A DNA stretch of 12,483 bases from a virus (lineage: Duplodnaviria > Heunggongvirae > Uroviricota > Caudoviricetes). Under the pieces are notes generated by a model. The model searched no databases. It was not told the origin of the DNA and worked only from the letters and a program-made list of their open reading frames with translations. Shown here in pieces: positions 1 through 10,816 of the stretch. Location: the IMG/VR virus record IMGVR_UViG_2563366928_000007. One strand, written 5' to 3'. Each line of letters opens with the position of its first letter. Position 1 is the stretch's first letter. The position numbers and the translations under genes are program-made.

Positions 1-357
<357 letters not shown>

Positions 358-487
358 AAACTGGGGATAACGCCTTAAATGGCGAAGAAACGGTCTAAAT
401 AGGCTGATTCAAGGCATTTACGGGAGAAAAAATCGGCTCAAACATGAAGAAATGAAATGACTGAGTCAGCCGAGAAGAATTTCCCCG

Positions 488-503
488 CTTATTCGCACCT
501 TCC
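488..503. repeat. IS5 16-bp terminal inverted repeat (CTTATTCGCACCTTCC) marking the element boundary; followed by CTAG (504-507), the expected IS5 target tetranucleotide
   Basis: Exact reverse complement of the IS5 terminal sequence GGAAGGTGCGAATAAG. IS5 inserts at YTAR and duplicates 4 bp (established knowledge). Confidence 0.85.
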
Positions 504-1852
504 CTAGTGAACTTGCAAAACTGGAAAAACTAAAGAGTCAGTATTCAAAGGAAGAATATAATAATCTTATCGCTCAAATAAATGAGCGTTATAAAGATCC
601 AAAGCAACCAAAGGCGAAAGGTTATTCGGATGATGCTGCCCAACGAATGATTGATCATCTGAATCAACAGAATGCGTTACTAAGTTCACAAACTGAATTA
701 ACCGTTAAATTAAGTTCCTCTGAACAGGAACTGGTTAAGTGGCGTCAGCAGATTGCCGACCTGGAGTCACGACCGTCATCGAAATTAACCAAGGATCAGA
801 AATCGCTTCTCTTACACCGGGAAGAAATAACCGCGTTGATGGAGAAAAATGTTGCGATTGAAAAAAATAACAGGCTAATCAAGGAATCCGCCGAAATAGC
901 TGCATGGCGTGATTCATTGCAGGCTTCGATTGATAATCGTCAACAGGGGTATGATATTCAGATTGCTGGTTATGGGGTTGGCGATAAAAATCAGCAACGC
1001 CAGCAGGAATTACTGCGGATTGAACGTGAATATAACAATCAGCGTCTGCAACTTGAACGTGACTATGCAGATAAATCCCGTGGGATGTCAAATCATGTTT
1101 TTCAGGAGAAAATGCAGGCTCTGAATGATGCTCTGGAACGAGAAAAAGAAATTGTCAGACAGAAAAACGAGCAGCTCGATATTCAGGCAGGAGACTGGGT
1201 TAGTGGTGCCTCCCAGGGATTCAATAACTGGCTGGATGACACTAAAGATATCAGTGAGCAGATAAAATCAACCACGACTCAGATGTTTGATGGAATGACC
1301 GATGCGCTGGGTGATTTTGTCACGACAGGCAAAGCAAATTTTCGTTCTTTCGCTACTTCCGTGATTTCGGATCTTAGTCGAATAGCATTAAAGGCTTCAA
1401 TTACTGGGATTTTCGACAGCATTAGTAACAGTTCTTCTGGGGGGATTTTAGGAACTATCGGGAGTGCTATTAGTAAATTTATTCCGAATGCAAAGGGCGG
1501 TGTTTATGAGTCTCCGTCATTGAACACGTATTCGAACGGTATTTATGATTCCCCGCAATTTTTTGCTTTTGCAAGAGGGGCTGGTGTTTTTGGTGAGGCT
1601 GGTCCGGAAGCCATTATGCCATTAACACGAACTTCCGATGGTTCTCTTGGTGTCAGAGCTGTTAATAGTAAAAGTGGTAATGGAGGCGGAGATATTACCT
1701 ATGCCCCTGTATACCAAATCACTATTCAAAATGACGGCCAGAATGGAGAGATTGGCCCTCAGGCAATAAAAGCACTTATGGGGATGGTTGATCAGCGGGT
1801 GCAGGGCAATCTGTTAAATATGCGACGTGATGGGGGAATGTTAAGTGGCTAA
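504..1852 (+). pseudogene. Tail tape measure protein (lambda gpH-like), 3' fragment; gene interrupted by the IS5 insertion
   Basis: The reading frame is open, with no stop, from the IS5 boundary (codons from 506) through to TAA at 1850-1852. The product is coiled-coil-like and Q/E/K/R-rich, then Gly/Ser-rich, typical of a tape measure C-terminus. Its position immediately upstream of M-L-K-I-J and its stop overlapping the M start match lambda H. The ORF track gives an ATG-initiated remnant at 647-1852 (401 aa). Confidence 0.78.
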
Positions 1853-2183
1853 TACGGAAGAATTTCACTGGTTACCAGAGGATGGAATGAAAACAGAAAA
1901 TAAACCATCGATAAAAACTGTAAGATTTGGCGATGGTTATGAGCAACGAAGTCCAAATGGACTTAATCATTCTCTGCGCGTTTTCACCTGTGATTTCAAA
2001 GTTGAGGCGAATGAACGTGATTCATTTGAAAAATTTTTAGCCCGGCATGAAGGCTATAAATCTTTTTTTTGGCGCCCGCCGGGTATTAACAGAAAAATCA
2101 GAGTGGTGTGTCGAACGTGGTCAGCGACAGAACATATCACCTATACCGATTTTTCGTGTCAGTTTGACGAAGTGGTGATCTGA
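1845..2183 (+). CDS. M: Minor tail protein M (lambda gpM-like)
   Basis: 112-aa ORF. The N-terminal FHW…GM…PS…VRFGDGYEQR and C-terminal …FDEVVI align by eye with lambda gpM (MKTFRWKVKPGMDVASVPSVRKVRFGDGYSQR…EFEQVVN, recalled). An alternative internal start exists at ATG 1887 with a GAGGATGG Shine-Dalgarno; the upstream start is favoured because the N-terminal residues are conserved with lambda M. Confidence 0.85.
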   Translation: MANTEEFHWLPEDGMKTENKPSIKTVRFGDGYEQRSPNGLNHSLRVFTCDFKVEANERDSFEKFLARHEGYKSFFWRPPGINRKIRVVCRTWSATEHITYTDFSCQFDEVVI

Positions 2184-2881
2184 TGCAGGACATACAACAG
2201 GAAACGCTGAATGAATGCATTCGTGCGGAGCAGTCGGCCAGCGTGGTGCTCTGGGAAATCGACCTGACCGAGGTAGGCGGGGATCGCTACTTTTTCTGTA
2301 ATGAGCAGAACGAAAAAGGTGAGTCTGTCACCTGGCAGAGTCGGCAGTATCAGGCCTATCCCATTCAGGGGAGTGGATTTGAGATGAACGGCAAGGGCAG
2401 TGCTGCCCGTCCGACACTGACGGTCTCTAACCTGCACGGCATGATCACCGGGATGGCGGAAGATCTGCAGAGTCTGGTCGGCGGAACGGTGGTCCGGCGT
2501 AAGGTTTACGCCCGCTTTCTGGATGCGGTGAACTTCGTCAACGGAAACAGCGAAGCCGATCCGGAGCAGGAGGTGATCAGCCGCTGGCGCATCGAGCAGT
2601 GCAGCGAACTGAGCGCGGTCAGTGCCTCTTTTGTACTGTCCACGCCGACTGAAACGGATGGCGCTGTTTTTCCGGGACGTATCATGCTGGCCAACACCTG
2701 CACCTGGACCTATCGCGGCGATGAGTGCGGTTATAGCGGTCCGGCGGTCGCGGATGAATATGACCAGCCGACGTCCGATATCACGAAGGATAAATGCAGC
2801 AAATGCCTGAGTGGCTGTAAGTTTCGCAATAATGTCGGCAACTTTGGCAGCTTCCTTTCCATTAACAAACTTTCGCAGTAA
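2183..2881 (+). CDS. L: Minor tail protein L (lambda gpL-like)
   Basis: 232-aa ORF, the same length as lambda gpL. Its start overlaps the M stop (TGATG). The C-terminal Cys cluster (CSKCLSGCKF) is consistent with the Fe-S-binding gpL family. Conserved gene order. Confidence 0.9.
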   Translation: MQDIQQETLNECIRAEQSASVVLWEIDLTEVGGDRYFFCNEQNEKGESVTWQSRQYQAYPIQGSGFEMNGKGSAARPTLTVSNLHGMITGMAEDLQSLVGGTVVRRKVYARFLDAVNFVNGNSEADPEQEVISRWRIEQCSELSAVSASFVLSTPTETDGAVFPGRIMLANTCTWTYRGDECGYSGPAVADEYDQPTSDITKDKCSKCLSGCKFRNNVGNFGSFLSINKLSQ

Positions 2882-2886
2882 ATCCC

Positions 2887-3630
2887 ATGACAGAGACAGA
2901 ATCAGCGATTCTGGCGCACGCCCGGCGATGTGCGCCAGCGGAGTCGTGCGGCTTCGTGGTGAGAACGCCGGAGGAGGAAAGATATTTTCCCTGCGTGAAT
3001 ATCTCCGGTGAGCCGGAGGAGTATTTCCGGATGTCGCCGGAGGACTGGCTGAGTGCAGAAATGCAGGGAGAGATTGTGGCGCTGGTCCACAGCCACCCCG
3101 GTGGTCTGCCCTGGCTGAGTGAGGCCGACCGGCGGCTGCAGGTACAGAGTGATTTGCCGTGGTGGCTGGTCTGCCGGGGGGCGATTCATAAATTCCGCTG
3201 TGTGCCGCATCTCACCGGGCGGCGCTTTGAGCACGGGGTAACGGACTGTTACACGCTGTTCCGGGACGCTTACCATCTGGCGGGAATTGAGATGCCGGAT
3301 TTTCATCGCGGGGATGACTGGTGGCGTAACGGTCAGAATCTCTATCTGGATAATCTGGAGGCCACAGGGCTGTATCAGGTGCCGTTGTCAGCGGCGCAGC
3401 CGGGCGATGTGCTGCTGTGCTGTTTTGGTTCATCGGTGCCGAATCATGCCGCCATTTACTGTGGTGACAGCGAGCTGCTGCACCATATTCCTGAACAACT
3501 GAGCAAACGAGAGAGGTACACCGACAAATGGCAGCGACGCACACACTCCCTCTGGCGTCACCGGGCATGGCACGCATCTGCCTTTACGGGGATTTACAAC
3601 GATTTGGCCGCCGCATCGACCTTCGAGTGA
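2887..3630 (+). CDS. K: Tail assembly protein K (lambda gpK-like) with N-terminal JAB/MPN (JAMM) domain and C-terminal NlpC/P60 domain
   Basis: 247-aa ORF. JAMM motif H-S-H-x7-S-x2-D (VHSHPGGLPWLSEAD); NlpC/P60-type Cys (VTDCYTLF) and His (VPNHAAIY). The 3' end overlaps I by 103 nt, as in lambda. The classical lambda annotation corresponds to the internal ATG at 3031 (199 aa). Confidence 0.85.
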   Translation: MTETESAILAHARRCAPAESCGFVVRTPEEERYFPCVNISGEPEEYFRMSPEDWLSAEMQGEIVALVHSHPGGLPWLSEADRRLQVQSDLPWWLVCRGAIHKFRCVPHLTGRRFEHGVTDCYTLFRDAYHLAGIEMPDFHRGDDWWRNGQNLYLDNLEATGLYQVPLSAAQPGDVLLCCFGSSVPNHAAIYCGDSELLHHIPEQLSKRERYTDKWQRRTHSLWRHRAWHASAFTGIYNDLAAASTFE

Positions 3631-4169
3631 AAACGGGGTCCGAAGCCATCCGGGCGCTGGCCATGCAGATCCCGGCATTTCGTCAGAAACTGAGCGACGG
3701 CTGGTACCAGGTACGCATTGCCGGGCGTGATGCAGGTGAAACCGAATTGTCTGCCCGTCTTAATGAGCCGCTGGAAAATGGTGCCGTGATCCATATCGTG
3801 CCGCGTCTGGCAGGAGCCAAAAGTGGCGGTGTGTTTCAGGCTGTGCTGGGGGCGGCTGTTATGGCGGTTGCTATATGGATGCCGGGGGTAGGAATTATGG
3901 CGAGTAATCTGCTGTTTTCTCTCGGTGCCAGTATGACGCTTGGCGGTGTTGCACAGATGCTGGCCCCTAAACCCAAAACCCCCCGCACACAGACAACGGA
4001 TAACGGCAAACAGAACACCTATTTTTCTTCACTGGATAACATGGTTGCCCAGGGCAATGTTCTGCCGGTTCTGTACGGTGAAATGCGCGTGGGGTCACGC
4101 GTGGTTTCTCAGGAGATCAGCACGGCAGACGAAGGGGATGGTGGTCAGGTTGTGGTGATTGGTCGCTGA
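3528..4169 (+). CDS. I: Tail assembly protein I (lambda gpI-like)
   Basis: 213-aa ORF beginning MAATHTLPLASPGMARICLYGDLQRFGRRIDL… and ending …VVSQEISTADEGDGGQVVVIGR, matching lambda gpI termini from memory. Its start lies inside the 3' end of K in another frame. Confidence 0.9.
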   Translation: MAATHTLPLASPGMARICLYGDLQRFGRRIDLRVKTGSEAIRALAMQIPAFRQKLSDGWYQVRIAGRDAGETELSARLNEPLENGAVIHIVPRLAGAKSGGVFQAVLGAAVMAVAIWMPGVGIMASNLLFSLGASMTLGGVAQMLAPKPKTPRTQTTDNGKQNTYFSSLDNMVAQGNVLPVLYGEMRVGSRVVSQEISTADEGDGGQVVVIGR

Positions 4170-4229: not shown

Positions 4230-7200
4230 ATGGGTAAAGGCAGCAGTAAGGGGCATACCCCGCGCGAAGCGAAGGACAACCTGAAGTCCACGCAGCTGCT
4301 GAGTGTGATCGATGCCATCAGCGAAGGGCCGGTTGAAGGTCCGGTGGATGGATTAAAAAGCGTGCTGCTGAACAGTACGCCGGTGCTGGACAGTGAGGGG
4401 AATACCAATATATCCGGCGTCACGGTGGTGTTCCGGGCCGGTGAGCAGGAGCAGACACCGCCGGAGGGATTTGAATCCTCCGGCTCCGAGACGGTGCTGG
4501 GTACGGAAGTGAAGTACGACACGCCGATTACCCGGACCATCACGTCGGCAAACATCGACCGTCTGCGCTTTACCTTCGGTGTGCAGGCACTGGTGGAAAC
4601 CACCTCAAAGGGGGACCGGAATCCGTCGGAAGTCCGCCTGCTGGTTCAGATACAGCGTAATGGTGGCTGGGTGACGGAAAAAGACATCACCATTAAAGGC
4701 AAAACCACCTCACAGTATCTAGCATCGGTGGTGGTGGGTGACCTGCCGCCGCGCCCGTTCAATATCCGGATGCGCAGGATGACGCCGGACAGCACCACAG
4801 ACCAGCTGCAGAACAAAACGCTCTGGTCGTCATACACCGAAATCATCGATGTGAAACAGTGCTACCCGAACACGGCACTGGTCGGCGTACAGGTGGATTC
4901 GGAGCAGTTCGGCAGCCAGCAGGTGAGCCGTAATTATCATCTGCGCGGGCGTATTCTGCAGGTGCCGTCGAACTATAACCCGCAGACTCGGCAATACAGC
5001 GGTATCTGGGACGGAACGTTTAAGCCAGCATACAGCAATAACATGGCCTGGTGTCTGTGGGATATGCTGACCCATCCACGCTACGGCATGGGGAAACGTC
5101 TTGGTGCGGCGGATGTGGACAAATGGGCGCTGTATGTCATCGGCCAGTACTGCGACCAGTCAGTGCCGGACGGCTTTGGCGGCACGGAGCCGCGCATCAC
5201 CTGTAATGCGTACCTGACCACACAGCGCAAGGCGTGGGATGTGCTCAGTGATTTCTGCTCGGCGATGCGCTGTATGCCGGTATGGAACGGGCAGACGCTG
5301 ACGTTCGTGCAGGACCGACCGTCGGATAAGGTGTGGACCTATAACCGCAGTAATGTGGTGATGCCGGATGATGGCGCGCCGTTCCGCTACAGCTTCAGCG
5401 CCCTGAAGGACCGCCATAATGCCGTTGAGGTGAACTGGATTGACCCGGACAACGGCTGGGAGACGGCGACAGAGCTTGTTGAAGATACGCAGGCCATTGC
5501 CCGTTACGGTCGTAATGTCACGAAGATGGATGCCTTTGGCTGTACCAGCCGGGGGCAGGCACACCGCGCCGGGCTGTGGCTGATTAAAACGGAACTGCTG
5601 GAGACGCAGACCGTGGATTTCAGCGTGGGTGCTGAAGGGCTTCGCCATGTACCGGGCGATGTCATTGAAATCTGCGATGATGACTATGCCGGTATCAGCA
5701 CCGGTGGTCGCGTGCTGGCGGTGAACAGCCAGACCCGGACGCTGACGCTCGACCGTGAAATCACGCTGCCATCCTCCGGTACCACGCTGATAAGCCTGGT
5801 TGACGGAAGTGGTAATCCGGTCAGCGTGGAGGTTCAGTCCGTCACCGACGGACTTAAGGTGAAAGTGAACCGGGTTCCTGACGGCGTTGCAGAATACAGT
5901 GTGTGGGGGCTGAAGCTGCCGACGCTGCGCCAGCGCCTGTTCCGCTGTGTGAGTATCCGTGAGAACGATGACGGCACGTATGCCATCACTGCCGTGCAGC
6001 ATGTACCGGAAAAAGAAGCCATCGTGGATAACGGGGCGCACTTTGACGGCGACCAGAGCGGCACGGTGAATGGTGTCACGCCGCCAGCGGTGCAGCACCT
6101 GACCGCCGAAGTCACCGCAGACAGCGGGGAATATCAGGTGCTGGCGCGCTGGGACACGCCGAAGGTGGTGAAGGGCGTGAGCTTCCTGCTTCGCCTGACC
6201 GTGGCAGCGGATGACGGCAGTGAGCGGCTGGTCAGCACGGCCCGGACGACGGAAACCACATACCGCTTCACGCAACTGGCGCTGGGGCGGTACACGCTGA
6301 CAGTCCGGGCGGTAAATGCGTGGGGACAGCAGGGCGATCCGGCGTCGGTATCGTTCCGGATTGCCGCACCGGTAGCACCGTCGCGGATTGAGCTGACGCC
6401 GGGGTATTTTCAGATAACCGCCACGCCGCATCTTGCCGTTTATGACCCGACGGTACAGTTTGAGTTCTGGTTCTCGGAAAAGCGGATTACCGATATCAGG
6501 CAGGTTGAAACCACAGCGCGCTACCTTGGCACGGGGCTGTACTGGATAGCCGCCAGTATCAATATCAAACCGGGCCATGATTATTATTTTTACGTTCGCA
6601 GTGTGAACACCGTTGGCAAATCGGCATTCGTGGAGGCTGTTGGTCAGCCGAGTGATGATGCATCCGGCTATCTGGATTTTTTCAAAGGCGAGATAGGGAA
6701 AACCCATCTGGCTCAGGAGCTGTGGACGCAGATTGATAACGGTCAGCTTGCGCCTGACCTGGCTGAAATCAGGACGTCCATTACGGATGTCAGCAATGAA
6801 ATCACGCAGACCGTCAATAAGAAACTGGAAGACCAGAGTGCAGCGATCCAGCAGATACAGAAGGTTCAGGTTGATACAAATAATAACCTGAACAGCATGT
6901 GGGCAGTGAAGCTGCAGCAGATGCAGGACGGACGCCTTTATATTGCGGGTATCGGTGCCGGTATTGAGAACACCCCCGACGGCATGCAGAGTCAGGTGCT
7001 GCTGGCGGCAGACAGGATTGCGATGATTAATCCTGCGAATGGCAACACAAAGCCGATGTTTGTTGGTCAGGGCGATCAGATATTCATGAATGAAGTGTTC
7101 CTGAAATATCTGACGGCTCCCACCATTACCAGCGGCGGTAATCCTCCGGCATTTTCCCTGACACCGGACGGGCGACTGACGGCGAAAAATGCCGATATCA

Positions 7201-7709
7201 GCGGTAGCGTGAATGCGAACTCCGGGACGCTCAACAACGTCACGATTAACGAGAACTGTCGGGTTCTGGGAAAACTGTCCGCGAACCAGATTGAAGGCGA
7301 TCTCGTTAAAACAGTGGGCAAAGCTTTCCCCCGGGACTCCCGTGCACCGGAGCGGTGGCCATCAGGGACCATTACCGTCAGGGTTTATGACGATCAGCCG
7401 TTTGACCGGCAAATTGTTATTCCAGCGGTGGCTTTCAGCGGTGCCAGACATGAACGGGAGAATAGCGATACTTATTCGTCATGCCGCCTGATAGTGAAGA
7501 AAAACGGGGCTGAAATTTATAACCGAACGGCTCTGGATAATACTCTGATTTACACGGGTGTTATTGATATGCCTGCAGGCAGTGGCGTAATGACACTGGA
7601 GTTTTCTGTATCAGCATGGTGGGTAAATGGCTGGTATCCCACAGCAAGTATCAGCGATTTGCTGGTTGTTGTGATGAAGAAAGCCACTGCAGGCATCACG
7701 ATTAGCTGA
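4230..7709 (+). CDS. J: Central tail fibre / host specificity protein J (tip attachment protein)
   Basis: 1159-aa ORF with GGAG Shine-Dalgarno 8 nt upstream. The N-terminus [34 protein letters not shown]… and most of the first ~1000 aa match lambda gpJ from memory. The C-terminal ~150-200 aa diverge from lambda in sequence but retain the …[23 protein letters not shown] ending. Confidence 0.95.
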
Positions 7710-7727: not shown

Positions 7728-7755
7728 GGGCGCCAGAAATGGCGCCTTTTTTATT
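7728..7755 (+). terminator. Rho-independent terminator downstream of J
   Basis: GGCGCC (7729-7734), loop AGAAAT, GGCGCC (7741-7746), followed by TTTTTTATT. Confidence 0.7.
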
Positions 7756-7776
7756 GCAGAAAAGCGAGAGGTAATT

Positions 7777-8376
7777 ATGCGTAAATTATGTGCTGTTATT
7801 CTGTCCACAGTAGTCTGGCTGGTCGCCGCTGGTACGCCAGCGAGCGCAGCAGAGCATCAGTCCACACTAAGCGCCGGGTATCTTCAGACCCATACTGATA
7901 TGCCCGGCAACGATGACCTGAAGGGCATTAACGTGAAATACCGTTATGAATTTACGGACACGCTGGGGCTGGTGACGTCATTCAGTTATGCCAATGCCAA
8001 AGATGAGCAAAAAACGCATTACAGCGATACCCGCTGGCATGAAGATTCAGTGCGTAACCGCTGGTTCAGCATGATGGCGGGGCCGTCTGTACGCGTGAAT
8101 GAATGGTTCAGTGCTTATGCGATGGCAGGTGTGGCTTACAGCCGTGTTTCAACTTTTTCCGGGGATTATCTCCGCGTAACTGACAGCAAGGGGAAAACGC
8201 ACGATGTGCTGACTGGAAGTGATGACGGTCGCCACAGCAACACGTCTCTGGCGTGGGGGGCTGGCGTGCAGTTTAACCCGACCGAATCCGTGGCCATTGA
8301 TATTGCTTATGAAGGCTCCGGCAGTGGTGACTGGCGCACTGACGGTTTCATCGTGGGTGTCGGTTATAAATTCTGA
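7777..8376 (+). CDS. lom: Outer membrane beta-barrel protein Lom (Ail/Lom/PagC/OmpX family)
   Basis: 199-aa ORF with GAGAGG Shine-Dalgarno. N-terminal signal peptide (MRKLCAVILSTVVWLVAAGTPASAAE), alternating amphipathic beta-strand pattern, and C-terminal …GVGYKF ending in Phe as in outer-membrane barrels. Position between J and stf is as in lambda. Confidence 0.9.
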   Translation: MRKLCAVILSTVVWLVAAGTPASAAEHQSTLSAGYLQTHTDMPGNDDLKGINVKYRYEFTDTLGLVTSFSYANAKDEQKTHYSDTRWHEDSVRNRWFSMMAGPSVRVNEWFSAYAMAGVAYSRVSTFSGDYLRVTDSKGKTHDVLTGSDDGRHSNTSLAWGAGVQFNPTESVAIDIAYEGSGSGDWRTDGFIVGVGYKF

Positions 8377-8430: not shown

Positions 8431-8440
8431 TGGAGTGGAT

Positions 8441-10816
8441 ATGGCAGCAGTAAAAATCTCAGGTGTGCTGAAAGATTGTGCGGGAAAACCAATACAGAAC
8501 TGCACTATTCAACTGAAGGCAAAGCGTAACAGCACCACGGTACTGGTGAACACGGTGGCCTCTGAAAATCCGGATGAAGCCGGGCGTTACAGCATGGATG
8601 TTGAGCATGGCCAGTACAGCGTCATCCTGCTGGTTGAAGGTTTTCCGCCTTCACATGCCGGGACCATTACCGTCTATGAAGGCTCCAGACCAGGTACGCT
8701 GAATGATTTTCTCGGTGCCATGACGGAAGATGATGTCATGCCGGAGGCATTGCGTCGTTTTGAGGCAATGGTGGAAGAAGTGGCACGCAACGCCGAAGCC
8801 GCCTCTCAGAGCGCAGCGGCGGCAAAGAAATCCGAAACTGCAGCGGCATCATCGAAGAACGCGGCGAAAACCTCAGAAACGAATGCAGCTAATAGTGCAC
8901 AGGCGGCAGCGACCTCAAAGACTGCATCGGCAAACTCCGCGACAGCAGCCAAAAAATCAGAAACCAACGCGAAAAACAGTGAGACAGCCGCAAAGACGAG
9001 CGAAACCAACGCAAAGTCCAGCCAGACGGCAGCGAAAACCAGCGAAACGAATGCTAAAGCCAGTGAAACTGCAGCAAAAAACAGCCAGGCTTCAGCAGCC
9101 GAAAGCGAGAGCGCGGCAGCCGGTTCTGCGACTTCAGCAGCTGGATCAGCAACTGCTGCGGCTAACAGCCAGAAAGCTGCGAAGACGAGTGAAACTAACG
9201 CAAAGTCCAGCCAGACGGCAGCGAAGACCAGCGAAACGAATGCCAAAGCCAGTGAAACTGCGGCGAAAAGCAGTCAGGATGCAGCGGCCCAAAGCGAGAG
9301 TGCCGCAGCCAGTTCTGCAAGCGCGGCGGCTGCTTCTGCCACTGCATCAGCTAACAGTCAAAAAGCAGCAAAAACCAGTGAAACCAACGCAAAGGTGAGC
9401 GAAACAGCGGCTGCGAACTCAGCGAAAGCATCGGCAGCAAGCCAGACGGCAGCTAAAGCAAGCGAAGATGCAGCCAGAGAGTACGCAAGCCAGGCTGCGG
9501 AGCCGTATAAATATGTCTTACAGCCGCTGCCTGATGTGTGGATACCATTTAACGATTCGCTGGATATGATTACGGGCTTTTCGCCATCATATAAAAAAAT
9601 TGTTATTGGTGACGATGAAATAACGATGCCTGGCGACAAGATTGTTAAGTTTAAACGTGCATCGAAAGCAACCTATATTAACAAATCTGGTGTGCTGACA
9701 GAGGCTGCCATTGACGAGCCACGATTTGAACGTGATGGCCTGCTTATTGAGGGGCAAAGAACAAACTACATGCTCAATTCGGAAAGCCCTGCCAGTTGGG
9801 GGCGATCGTCAAATATGGATGTGCCCGAAACAGGGACGGATAATTTTGGTTTTACCTATGGAAAGTTTGTCTGCAACGATTCTCTGATTGGGCAAACCTC
9901 AGCCATTAATATGGCATCAATTGCTGCAACAAAGTCAGTTGATGTCTCAGGCGATAATAAACACGTGACAACCTCATGTCGTTTTAAAACAGAACTGCAG
10001 GTAAGGTTGCGTATCCGGTTTGATAAATATGACGGTAGCGCAACAACTTTTCTTGGTGATGCGTATATTGATACACAAACGCTTGAAATTAATATGACAG
10101 GCGGTGCTGCCTCAAGGATTACAGCGAGAGTCAGAAAGGACGAAGCTACCGGATGGATTTTTGCAGAGGCAACAATTCAGGCAATTGATGGGGAGTTAAA
10201 AATAGGCTCTCAGATACAGTATTCTCCTAAGCAGAGCGGGGCAACCGTATCTGGTGACTATATTTATCTGGCCACCCCACAAGTAGAAGATGGGCCTTGT
10301 GTATCATCTTTTATTATATCAGGAGCGACGGCGGCGACCCGCGCAAGCGATATAGTTACAGTTCCAATTAAGAATAATCTTTATAATCTTCCTTTTACGG
10401 TTCTTTGTGAGGTACATAAGAACTGGTATAAAACGCCAAATGCAGCGCCACGTGTTTTTGATACCGGCGGTCATCAAACCGGAGCGGCTATTATTCTTGG
10501 CTTCGGTCGTTCAACAGATTACGACGGATTTCCTTATTGCGATATTGGAGGAGCTAACAGACGGGTAAACGAAAACGCATCGCTTGAAAAAATGGTTATG
10601 GGGATGCGTGTAAAGTCAGAGCAGTCTACGTGCTCAGTAAGTAACGGGCATATATCCAGCGAAACAAAAACCACATGGTCCTGTATTCAGAACACCGCAA
10701 TTATCCGTATTGGAGGCCAGACTACAGCCGGGTTACGTCATTTATTTGGTCATGTCAGGAATTTCAGAATATGGCACAAGGCATTGACTGATGCTCAGGT
10801 GGGGGAGTCAATCTAA
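8441..10816 (+). CDS. stf: Side tail fibre protein Stf, mosaic: lambda-like N-terminal domain, repeat shaft, divergent C-terminal receptor-binding region with LamG-like terminal motif
   Basis: Long ORF (track start GTG 8435; ATG 8441 is preferred, with GGAG 5 nt upstream, giving MAAVKISGVLKD… like lambda Stf MAVKISGVLKDGTGKPVQNCTIQLKA…). An S/A/T/K/E/N-rich repeat region follows. The C-terminal ~430 aa are unrelated to lambda Stf and end …GLRHLFGHVRNFRIWHKALTDAQVGESI. Confidence 0.9.
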   Translation: MAAVKISGVLKDCAGKPIQNCTIQLKAKRNSTTVLVNTVASENPDEAGRYSMDVEHGQYSVILLVEGFPPSHAGTITVYEGSRPGTLNDFLGAMTEDDVMPEALRRFEAMVEEVARNAEAASQSAAAAKKSETAAASSKNAAKTSETNAANSAQAAATSKTASANSATAAKKSETNAKNSETAAKTSETNAKSSQTAAKTSETNAKASETAAKNSQASAAESESAAAGSATSAAGSATAAANSQKAAKTSETNAKSSQTAAKTSETNAKASETAAKSSQDAAAQSESAAASSASAAAASATASANSQKAAKTSETNAKVSETAAANSAKASAASQTAAKASEDAAREYASQAAEPYKYVLQPLPDVWIPFNDSLDMITGFSPSYKKIVIGDDEITMPGDKIVKFKRASKATYINKSGVLTEAAIDEPRFERDGLLIEGQRTNYMLNSESPASWGRSSNMDVPETGTDNFGFTYGKFVCNDSLIGQTSAINMASIAATKSVDVSGDNKHVTTSCRFKTELQVRLRIRFDKYDGSATTFLGDAYIDTQTLEINMTGGAASRITARVRKDEATGWIFAEATIQAIDGELKIGSQIQYSPKQSGATVSGDYIYLATPQVEDGPCVSSFIISGATAATRASDIVTVPIKNNLYNLPFTVLCEVHKNWYKTPNAAPRVFDTGGHQTGAAIILGFGRSTDYDGFPYCDIGGANRRVNENASLEKMVMGMRVKSEQSTCSVSNGHISSETKTTWSCIQNTAIIRIGGQTTAGLRHLFGHVRNFRIWHKALTDAQVGESI
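8815..9480 (+). repeat. Low-complexity coding repeat region inside stf, including a ~189-bp (63-aa) tandem direct duplication (copies starting near 9011 and 9200, third partial copy after ~9389)
   Basis: The motif gcaaagtccagccagacggcagcgaa… occurs at ~9011 and again at ~9200, with collinear similarity over ~190 bp. The protein shows reiterated AAKTSETNAK(S/A)S(Q/E)TAAK units. Confidence 0.8.

Follow-up and report, generated by a model that had tools for sequence, protein, structure and literature searches.

Exchange of C-terminal modules between the central tail fibre proteins (J) of lambdoid phages has long been known, and the lambda h434 hybrid uses OmpC. For lambda gpJ, structures are available of the closed form (PDB 8XCK) and of the open form with LamB (8XCJ); for A8 gpJ there are likewise a closed form (9WCA) and an open form with OmpC G17 of EDL933 (9WCB). 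Natural J C-termini were fused to lambda gpJ at amino acid (aa) 964, and the chimeras A8 and 1A2 were characterised (Brodel et al., Nature 2024; PMC11338833). The receptor of phage phi330 was also reported to be OmpC (PMC12502783). Here we analyse the J gene in a stretch of 12,483 nucleotides (nt) from the Caudoviricetes record IMGVR_UViG_2563366928_000007 of IMG/VR; this whole stretch, referred to as the window, comes from a lambdoid prophage of Escherichia coli and represents its tail-tip region. Its J is best described as a recombinant central tail fibre of the lambda family, in which lambda-type codons 1-803 are followed by two independently exchanged modules, the second of which is a receptor-binding domain that probably recognises OmpC. 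A mosaic J with an OmpC-type receptor-binding domain is our full explanation of the locus, and we put its probability at roughly 0.75.

Window J (1159 aa) was aligned globally with lambda J (1132 aa; P03749/NP_040600), and its gene was compared with six others, those of lambda, lambda h434, phage 21, PhiR47_1, VT1-Sakai and phi330. An earlier note, made from the DNA letters, had proposed that the C-terminal receptor-recognition region of J diverges from lambda, and this divergence is real: identity to lambda J is 97% over aa 1-803 (782/803) and then 30% (aa 804-889), 62% (aa 890-955), 82% (aa 956-1023) and 40% (aa 1024-1159). For the same five segments in order, identities are 97/98/98/93/61% to phage 21 J and 98/31/61/97/99% to PhiR47_1 J. 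Phage 21, PhiR47_1 and lambda h434 are as close to the window as lambda is in the first segment, whose DNA is 95.7% identical to that of lambda. The density of DNA mismatches against lambda jumps at nt ~6638-6641 (aa 804), and GC content changes across this breakpoint from 0.59 to 0.51. The near-lambda part therefore spans only ~803 aa and not the first ~1000 of the earlier note, a figure also at odds with the note's own coordinate of 6700, which is aa 824. Divergence does start near the motif quoted there (aa 817-831), but the breakpoint itself lies ~60 nt upstream of 6700. Nor is the divergence uniform, as it includes a 28-aa insertion (within aa 836-866) and spares a conserved island (aa 956-1023). 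The supposition that the overall architecture is retained was correct, every Pfam gpJ domain being present in the lambda order. Phage-tail_3, FNIII-A_GpJ, Ig_J, Ig_J_second, Phage_Tail_Tip and Ig_GpJ_C scored above their cut-offs, with PF09327 Phage_Tail_Tip at aa 872-1000 and PF12421 Ig_GpJ_C at aa 1029-1159 (E = 7e-37); no Pfam domain covers the shaft stretch at aa 818-872. In the alignment, the C-terminal 250 aa are not essentially identical to lambda J, and at the very end the 14-letter terminus of window J stands against ...VMVIKKQALGISVV in lambda. From the 97% identity of its hub part to lambda, J would be expected to assemble as a trimer into the tail tip.

The first module (aa 804-955) consists of the shaft and the proximal part of the central straight fibre. 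It is shared with phage 21 and O157 prophages, and is 30-62% identical to lambda, lambda h434 and PhiR47_1; at the DNA level (nt 6641-7090), identity is 96.7% to phage 21 and 92.9% to VT1-Sakai, which makes the window a member of the long-shaft group. In lambda, the shaft occupies residues 809-861 (PMC11101478). The window shaft corresponds to this stretch plus 28 extra residues, located within aa 836-866 (nt 6735-6827) and distributed over alignment gaps of 6+15+7. Because 28 residues make four heptads, we infer that the coiled-coil register is kept and that the shaft is longer. A longer shaft would extend the element that, in lambda, refolds upon receptor binding. However different from lambda this module may be, it does not decide the receptor: shared at 98% identity with the LamB-using phage 21, it is uninformative on this point, and its divergence is silent on receptor choice. 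Only the distal ~140-170 aa of J bear on the receptor.

The second module (aa ~1024-1159), the receptor-binding domain, is 99% identical to PhiR47_1 and 92.7% to VT1-Sakai (last 150 aa), against 60-63% for phage 21 and phi330 and 40-41% for lambda and lambda h434. Besides the breakpoint at ~6638, the J gene has one at nt ~7076-7094, the junction between PhiR47_1 and the window, and one at nt ~7298-7330, the junction between phage 21 and the window, both in or beside the linker (aa 956-1023). This conserved linker supplies homology for recombination between the fibre and the receptor-binding domain. PhiR47_1 combines a short lambda shaft with the receptor-binding domain of the window, and phage 21 combines the long shaft with another domain; these combinations are direct evidence that the modules have been exchanged independently. 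Mosaicism of J is ordinary and already catalogued. The window protein and J of E. coli GN06156 (RefSeq WP_016234318.1) have the same amino-acid sequence, and the domain class of the window is also already known.

The fold of the distal part is that of the solved lambda-family tips. A PDB sequence search with the C-terminal 369 aa of J retrieved 9wca ('A8 gpJ 713', E = 1e-132) as the best hit, and lambda 8xcj (2e-111). An AlphaFold model of aa 991-1159, computed as a monomer, has a mean predicted local distance difference test (pLDDT) score of 78.7, with low values confined to its ~35 N-terminal residues, part of the trimeric prism; short J fragments from the word-indexed protein search, some of them frameshifted, had been removed before modelling. 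The best structural matches to the model are A8 gpJ (9wca/9wcb) and lambda gpJ (8xck/8xcj), with template modelling (TM) scores of 0.74-0.78. Candidate contact elements were located by alignment with phi330, for which an AlphaFold3 model with OmpC discusses the T918-Y921 loop, has E953-S962 pointing into the OmpC barrel, and has A1015-P1020 in contact with the barrel rim (PMC12502783). The window counterpart of the first, DSRAPERW, is four residues longer than that of phage 21 and phi330, and its alignment columns have high entropy. In the third, WVNGWYP, the window and VT1-Sakai/1A2 differ by the substitutions W1131L and G1134N.

The case for OmpC is carried by chimera 1A2. Its fusion point, lambda aa 964, is window aa 992, within the linker, and since fusion there retargets the particle, the segment downstream suffices for specificity. 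Over that segment, ~158 of 169 residues (~93%) are identical between the window and 1A2, and loop lengths are identical; the residues of 1A2 that differ are N993, K1073, K1076, H1078, T1079, I1081, R1090, H1118, H1120, L1131 and N1134. The comparison was made at the protein level and across frames, with a stitched translation of a machine-read supplement PDF that contains indel errors, and the 1A2 C-terminus so obtained is of the VT1-Sakai type; the window DNA strings tried against the 1A2 DNA in the Brodel supplement gave no exact match. Delivery by 1A2 was at most 5% into wild-type LamB+ MG1655, 2% into dlamB dompC cells with K-12 OmpC (variant G1), and 76-99% at the top multiplicity of infection with 20 of the 23 natural OmpC variants, that of EDL933 (G17) among them (PMC11338833). 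The variants were tested in MG1655 dlamB dompC with plasmid-borne OmpC, and the three failures were G1, G2 and G40. The 1A2 class is thus OmpC-dependent, LamB-independent and blind to K-12 OmpC, with delivery shown for 1A2 only. Judged by its sequence, window J most likely has OmpC as its receptor, which supports the suggestion of the earlier note that the receptor has been altered, possibly to another porin. In sequence, the window domain does not closely resemble the LamB-binding domain of lambda (lambda J aa ~997-1132, with loops L1-L4): identity over aa 1024-1159 is low and the contact elements differ.

By analogy with lambda gpJ on LamB and A8 gpJ on OmpC, the trimeric domain would trigger opening of the tail by insertion of its bottom loops into a trimeric porin. 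This porin would most probably be OmpC, in most of its natural allelic forms but not in the K-12 form, and not LamB. Host records point in the same direction: PhiR47_1, an isolated phage with the 99% identical domain, has ECOR13 as its recorded host, and among the deposited phages seen, this domain class was recorded on ECOR13 or E. coli C, while those recorded on K-12 had the 434-type domain. These host fields fit a class blind to K-12 OmpC, but are suggestive only. The papers that name PhiR47_1, PhiR55_1, PhiR46_1 and vB_EcoS-640R1 describe ManYZ/SNIPE phenotypes and report no outer-membrane receptor. For the receptors of long-tailed Shiga toxin (Stx) phages, our literature searches yielded phi330 (OmpC) alone, a member of a different domain class, and a large receptor-screen preprint deals with Drexlerviridae-type GpJ and not with the window domain class.

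The domain is widespread. At a threshold of at least 80% identity, the segment encoding it (nt 7291-7709) was found in 3369 of 5426 complete E. coli genomes (62%), with a median of two copies, and 237 records matched at 99% identity or above. The corresponding segment of lambda was found in 98 of the 5426 genomes (2%), and all five records listed were laboratory or DE3 strains. The 'diverged' tip is the common natural form, and the LamB-binding tip of lambda is the rarity.

Several observations weigh against the assignment to OmpC. It is an assignment by homology, to a chimera that differs from the window allele at ~11 positions and whose sequence comes from a noisy machine-read PDF, with a few residues illegible. 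The contact loops were taken from an AlphaFold3 model of another class (phi330) and not from a solved complex of this class. Relative to the near-identical VT1-Sakai domain, five of 12 differences fall within the 21 residues aligned with the phi330 loops (aa 1036-1043, 1075-1081 and 1132-1137; hypergeometric p = 0.008), four of the 12 being in the hairpin at aa 1075-1081, and two more are in the AGSGV loop, outside the 21 residues. The receptor-contact loops are therefore not identical to those of the 1A2 class, and as the differences are concentrated in contact-aligned residues, window J could depart from 1A2 in its allele range, or even in its receptor. The choice of receptor is also labile within this family: phage 21 (LamB) gains the use of OmpC by one mutation (PMC11336670), and the domains of phi330 (OmpC) and phage 21 (LamB) are 81% identical yet bind different porins, so that percent identity between classes is a poor guide to the receptor. 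In the source-data sheet for Extended Data Fig. 2c of Brodel et al., the numbers for 1A2 and A8 on OmpC-EDL933 equal those of panel b (OmpC-MG1655), which looks like a copy-paste slip; because panel c repeats panel b, support for the EDL933 result comes from Fig. 1b and from Extended Data Figs 1 (G17) and 8a. Lastly, with an IS5 insertion in the tape-measure gene, the function of J in this genome cannot be assumed.

Among the alternatives, a shift of this allele to another porin (e.g., OmpF) or to another spectrum of OmpC alleles, by way of its contact-loop differences from 1A2, is conceivable but unlikely. The clustering of VT1-Sakai substitutions in predicted contact residues would be in keeping with such a shift; 1A2 is itself allele-selective, failing on G1, G2 and G40, and single mutations switch the porin of phage 21 (PMC11336670) and of lambda J (PMC11101478). 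Nevertheless, ~93% identity to 1A2 and loop lengths equal to those of 1A2 and VT1-Sakai argue against a shift, and alleles at 80-100% nt identity in 62% of E. coli genomes are consistent with one common polymorphic receptor. It is a similarly tentative idea that the substitutions in the predicted porin-contact loops give a receptor range unlike that of 1A2 (other OmpC alleles or another porin), and that the shaft longer by four heptads is a separately selectable module that tunes the reach or triggering of the tail tip. If this were true, E. coli genomes would offer, in their hundreds of alleles of this class, a natural library of adhesins specific to particular OmpC alleles.

We regard as improbable that the receptor-binding domain still uses LamB, as those of lambda and phage 21 do, and that its divergence reflects arms-race drift on the same receptor. 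Such drift could account for a fold identical to that of the LamB-binding domain of lambda, and for the relationship to the LamB-using phage 21, whose identity to the window is 98% in the shaft and proximal fibre and 61% in the receptor-binding domain; however, the much closer 1A2 domain gives at most 5% delivery in LamB+ MG1655 and is active in dlamB cells provided with a suitable OmpC, and all three contact elements differ from those of lambda and phage 21 in length and sequence. Least credible is that the gene is a non-functional remnant of a defective prophage, with a diverged C-terminus that has no present role. The J open reading frame (ORF) is intact over 1159 codons and its protein is identical in GN06156, whose tape-measure gene is intact, while in PhiR47_1, an isolated phage, a domain 99% identical to that of the window is functional. 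Although IS5 cuts the tape-measure gene just upstream, and the J homologue of VT1-Sakai is annotated as truncated by a mutation, the IS5 insertion is specific to this genome copy and leaves the sequence divergence unaccounted for.

Table 1. Positions of J, its segments and the neighbouring features in the window.
Feature	Position (nt)	Strand	Residues, basis or remarks
IS5 element, 3' end, in tape-measure gene	1..503	+	Frame-1 translation is the InsH transposase C-terminus
Tape-measure gene, 3' remainder	to 1852		ORF 647-1852, 401 aa
M	1845-2183		ORF list
L	2183-2881		ORF list
K	2887-3630		ORF list
I	3528-4169		ORF list
J, tip attachment protein/central tail fibre	4230..7709	+	1159 aa, intact ORF; ORF list, translation, seven Pfam gpJ domains
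J: lambda-like N-terminal part (hub domains, FNIII-A, two Ig/FNIII domains)	4230..6638	+	aa 1-803; GC 0.59
J: alpha-helical shaft, long variant	6639..6896	+	aa 804-889; lambda 30%, phage 21 98%
J: proximal central straight fibre (beta-prism), phage-21/VT1-Sakai type	6897..7094	+	aa 890-955; lambda 62%, phage 21 98%
J: conserved linker, distal fibre	7095..7298	+	aa 956-1023; 79-97% identical across all J types compared
J: receptor-binding domain, Ig-like, '1A2/VT1-Sakai/PhiR47_1' class	7299..7706	+	aa 1024-1159; PF12421 Ig_GpJ_C
J: predicted receptor-contact loop 1, DSRAPERW	7335..7358	+	aa 1036-1043; aligns with phi330 T918-Y921
J: predicted receptor-contact hairpin, ERENSDT	7452..7472	+	aa 1075-1081; aligns with phi330 E953-S962
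J: predicted receptor-contact loop, WVNGWYP	7620..7640	+	aa 1131-1137; aligns with phi330 A1015-P1020
Terminator-like hairpin and T-run just 3' of J stop	7728..7757	+	8-bp stem, 6 GC pairs, then TTTTTATT
Ail/Lom gene	7777-8376		Ail_Lom, E = 4e-126
stf, side tail fibre gene	8435-10816		793 aa
Two more tail-fibre-region genes	after stf		

Genes M-L-K-I-J of the window precede lom and the side tail fibre genes, as in lambda, and from nt 504 onward the window matches many complete E. coli genomes at 99.5-99.9% (Table 1). At the upstream end, the IS5 terminal repeat cttattcgcaccttcc occupies 488-503 and is followed by the CTAG target (504-507), and homology to the intact tape-measure gene of GN06156 begins exactly at nt 504. 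With its tape-measure gene cut by IS5, the prophage copy in this genome is probably tail-defective and without infectious tails, J itself being intact; J here would then be an intact gene that survives in a decaying prophage. An apparent full-length match of the window in strain 144 is in part an artefact of that strain's own IS5 copy in stf, which is a different insertion.

Within J, the ORFs at 7076-7372 (-) and 7213-7491 (+) were rejected as spurious, since neither has a Pfam match and both fall within a gene that is itself well supported. An antisense ORF of 515 aa at 5160-6707 (-), where J is GC-rich, most likely arises from base composition. Downstream, phage 21 has an annotated terminator after J at the position matching the window hairpin. 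In stf, a strong excess of A over T at 8941-9394 (AT skew 0.57) comes from tandem repeats of 42 nt and 189 nt; at the protein level, these give the side tail fibre, in its N-terminal half, a repeat rich in Ala/Ser/Thr/Lys (AAKTSETNAKxSxT...). The stf gene of GN06156 is annotated in RefSeq as two pieces, of which one is a pseudogene. The genes sitABCD and uspF adjoin the window-type prophage in E. coli genomes, and the phage 21 record has sitD and sitC directly after its tail-fibre genes, which suggests a common insertion context for phage 21 and the window prophage, or flanking host DNA that was picked up.

J also contains the counterpart of a known trigger of host defence. HepS, a prophage nuclease of abortive infection, is triggered by residues 902-933 of lambda J, a 32-residue peptide in which F924 is critical (PMC13043305). 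In window J, the peptide corresponds to aa 929-960 (7014-7109), with 24 of 32 positions conserved, among them the phenylalanine, F952 (nt 7083-7085), which is the equivalent of F924. Because peptide and phenylalanine are both conserved, window J would be predicted to trigger HepS.

Compared with the systems described above, the window agrees with lambda in the position of J within M-L-K-I-J-lom-stf, in the seven-domain architecture of gpJ, in the Ig-like fold of the receptor-binding domain (TM 0.78) and in the retention of F924 as F952. It differs from lambda in a shaft longer by 28 aa and in its contact loops, and while lambda binds LamB, OmpC would be expected for the window class. Phage 21 J (OL657228, UMO75436; 1160 aa) is 97-98% identical through aa 955, long shaft included, but has a receptor-binding domain that is 61% identical and uses LamB. 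The reverse holds for J of PhiR47_1 (PV340566; 1131 aa), a plaque-forming phage with a 99% identical domain on a short lambda-type shaft. VT1-Sakai (Sp15) J resembles the window in both, with an nt identity of 93-98% that extends from nt ~6375 through the long shaft to the end, but its N-terminal 700 aa are only ~77% identical at the nt level and J is split by a mutation. Unlike window J, chimera 1A2 follows lambda through shaft and fibre as far as aa 964, and several of the ~11 differences lie in predicted contact loops. A8 gpJ (9WCA/9WCB) and phi330 J (PV189401), for both of which OmpC has been shown to be the receptor, have the same fold as the window, but belong to another domain class, 60-63% identical and closer to phage 21; K-12 OmpC is accepted by A8 but not by 1A2. 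Lambda particles have already been retargeted to OmpC with a near-identical receptor-binding domain, and there is little new biology in the window domain as such. Worth keeping from this locus are the points that the stretch diverging from lambda is two modules, and that in the J family percent identity between classes does not allow the receptor to be called reliably.

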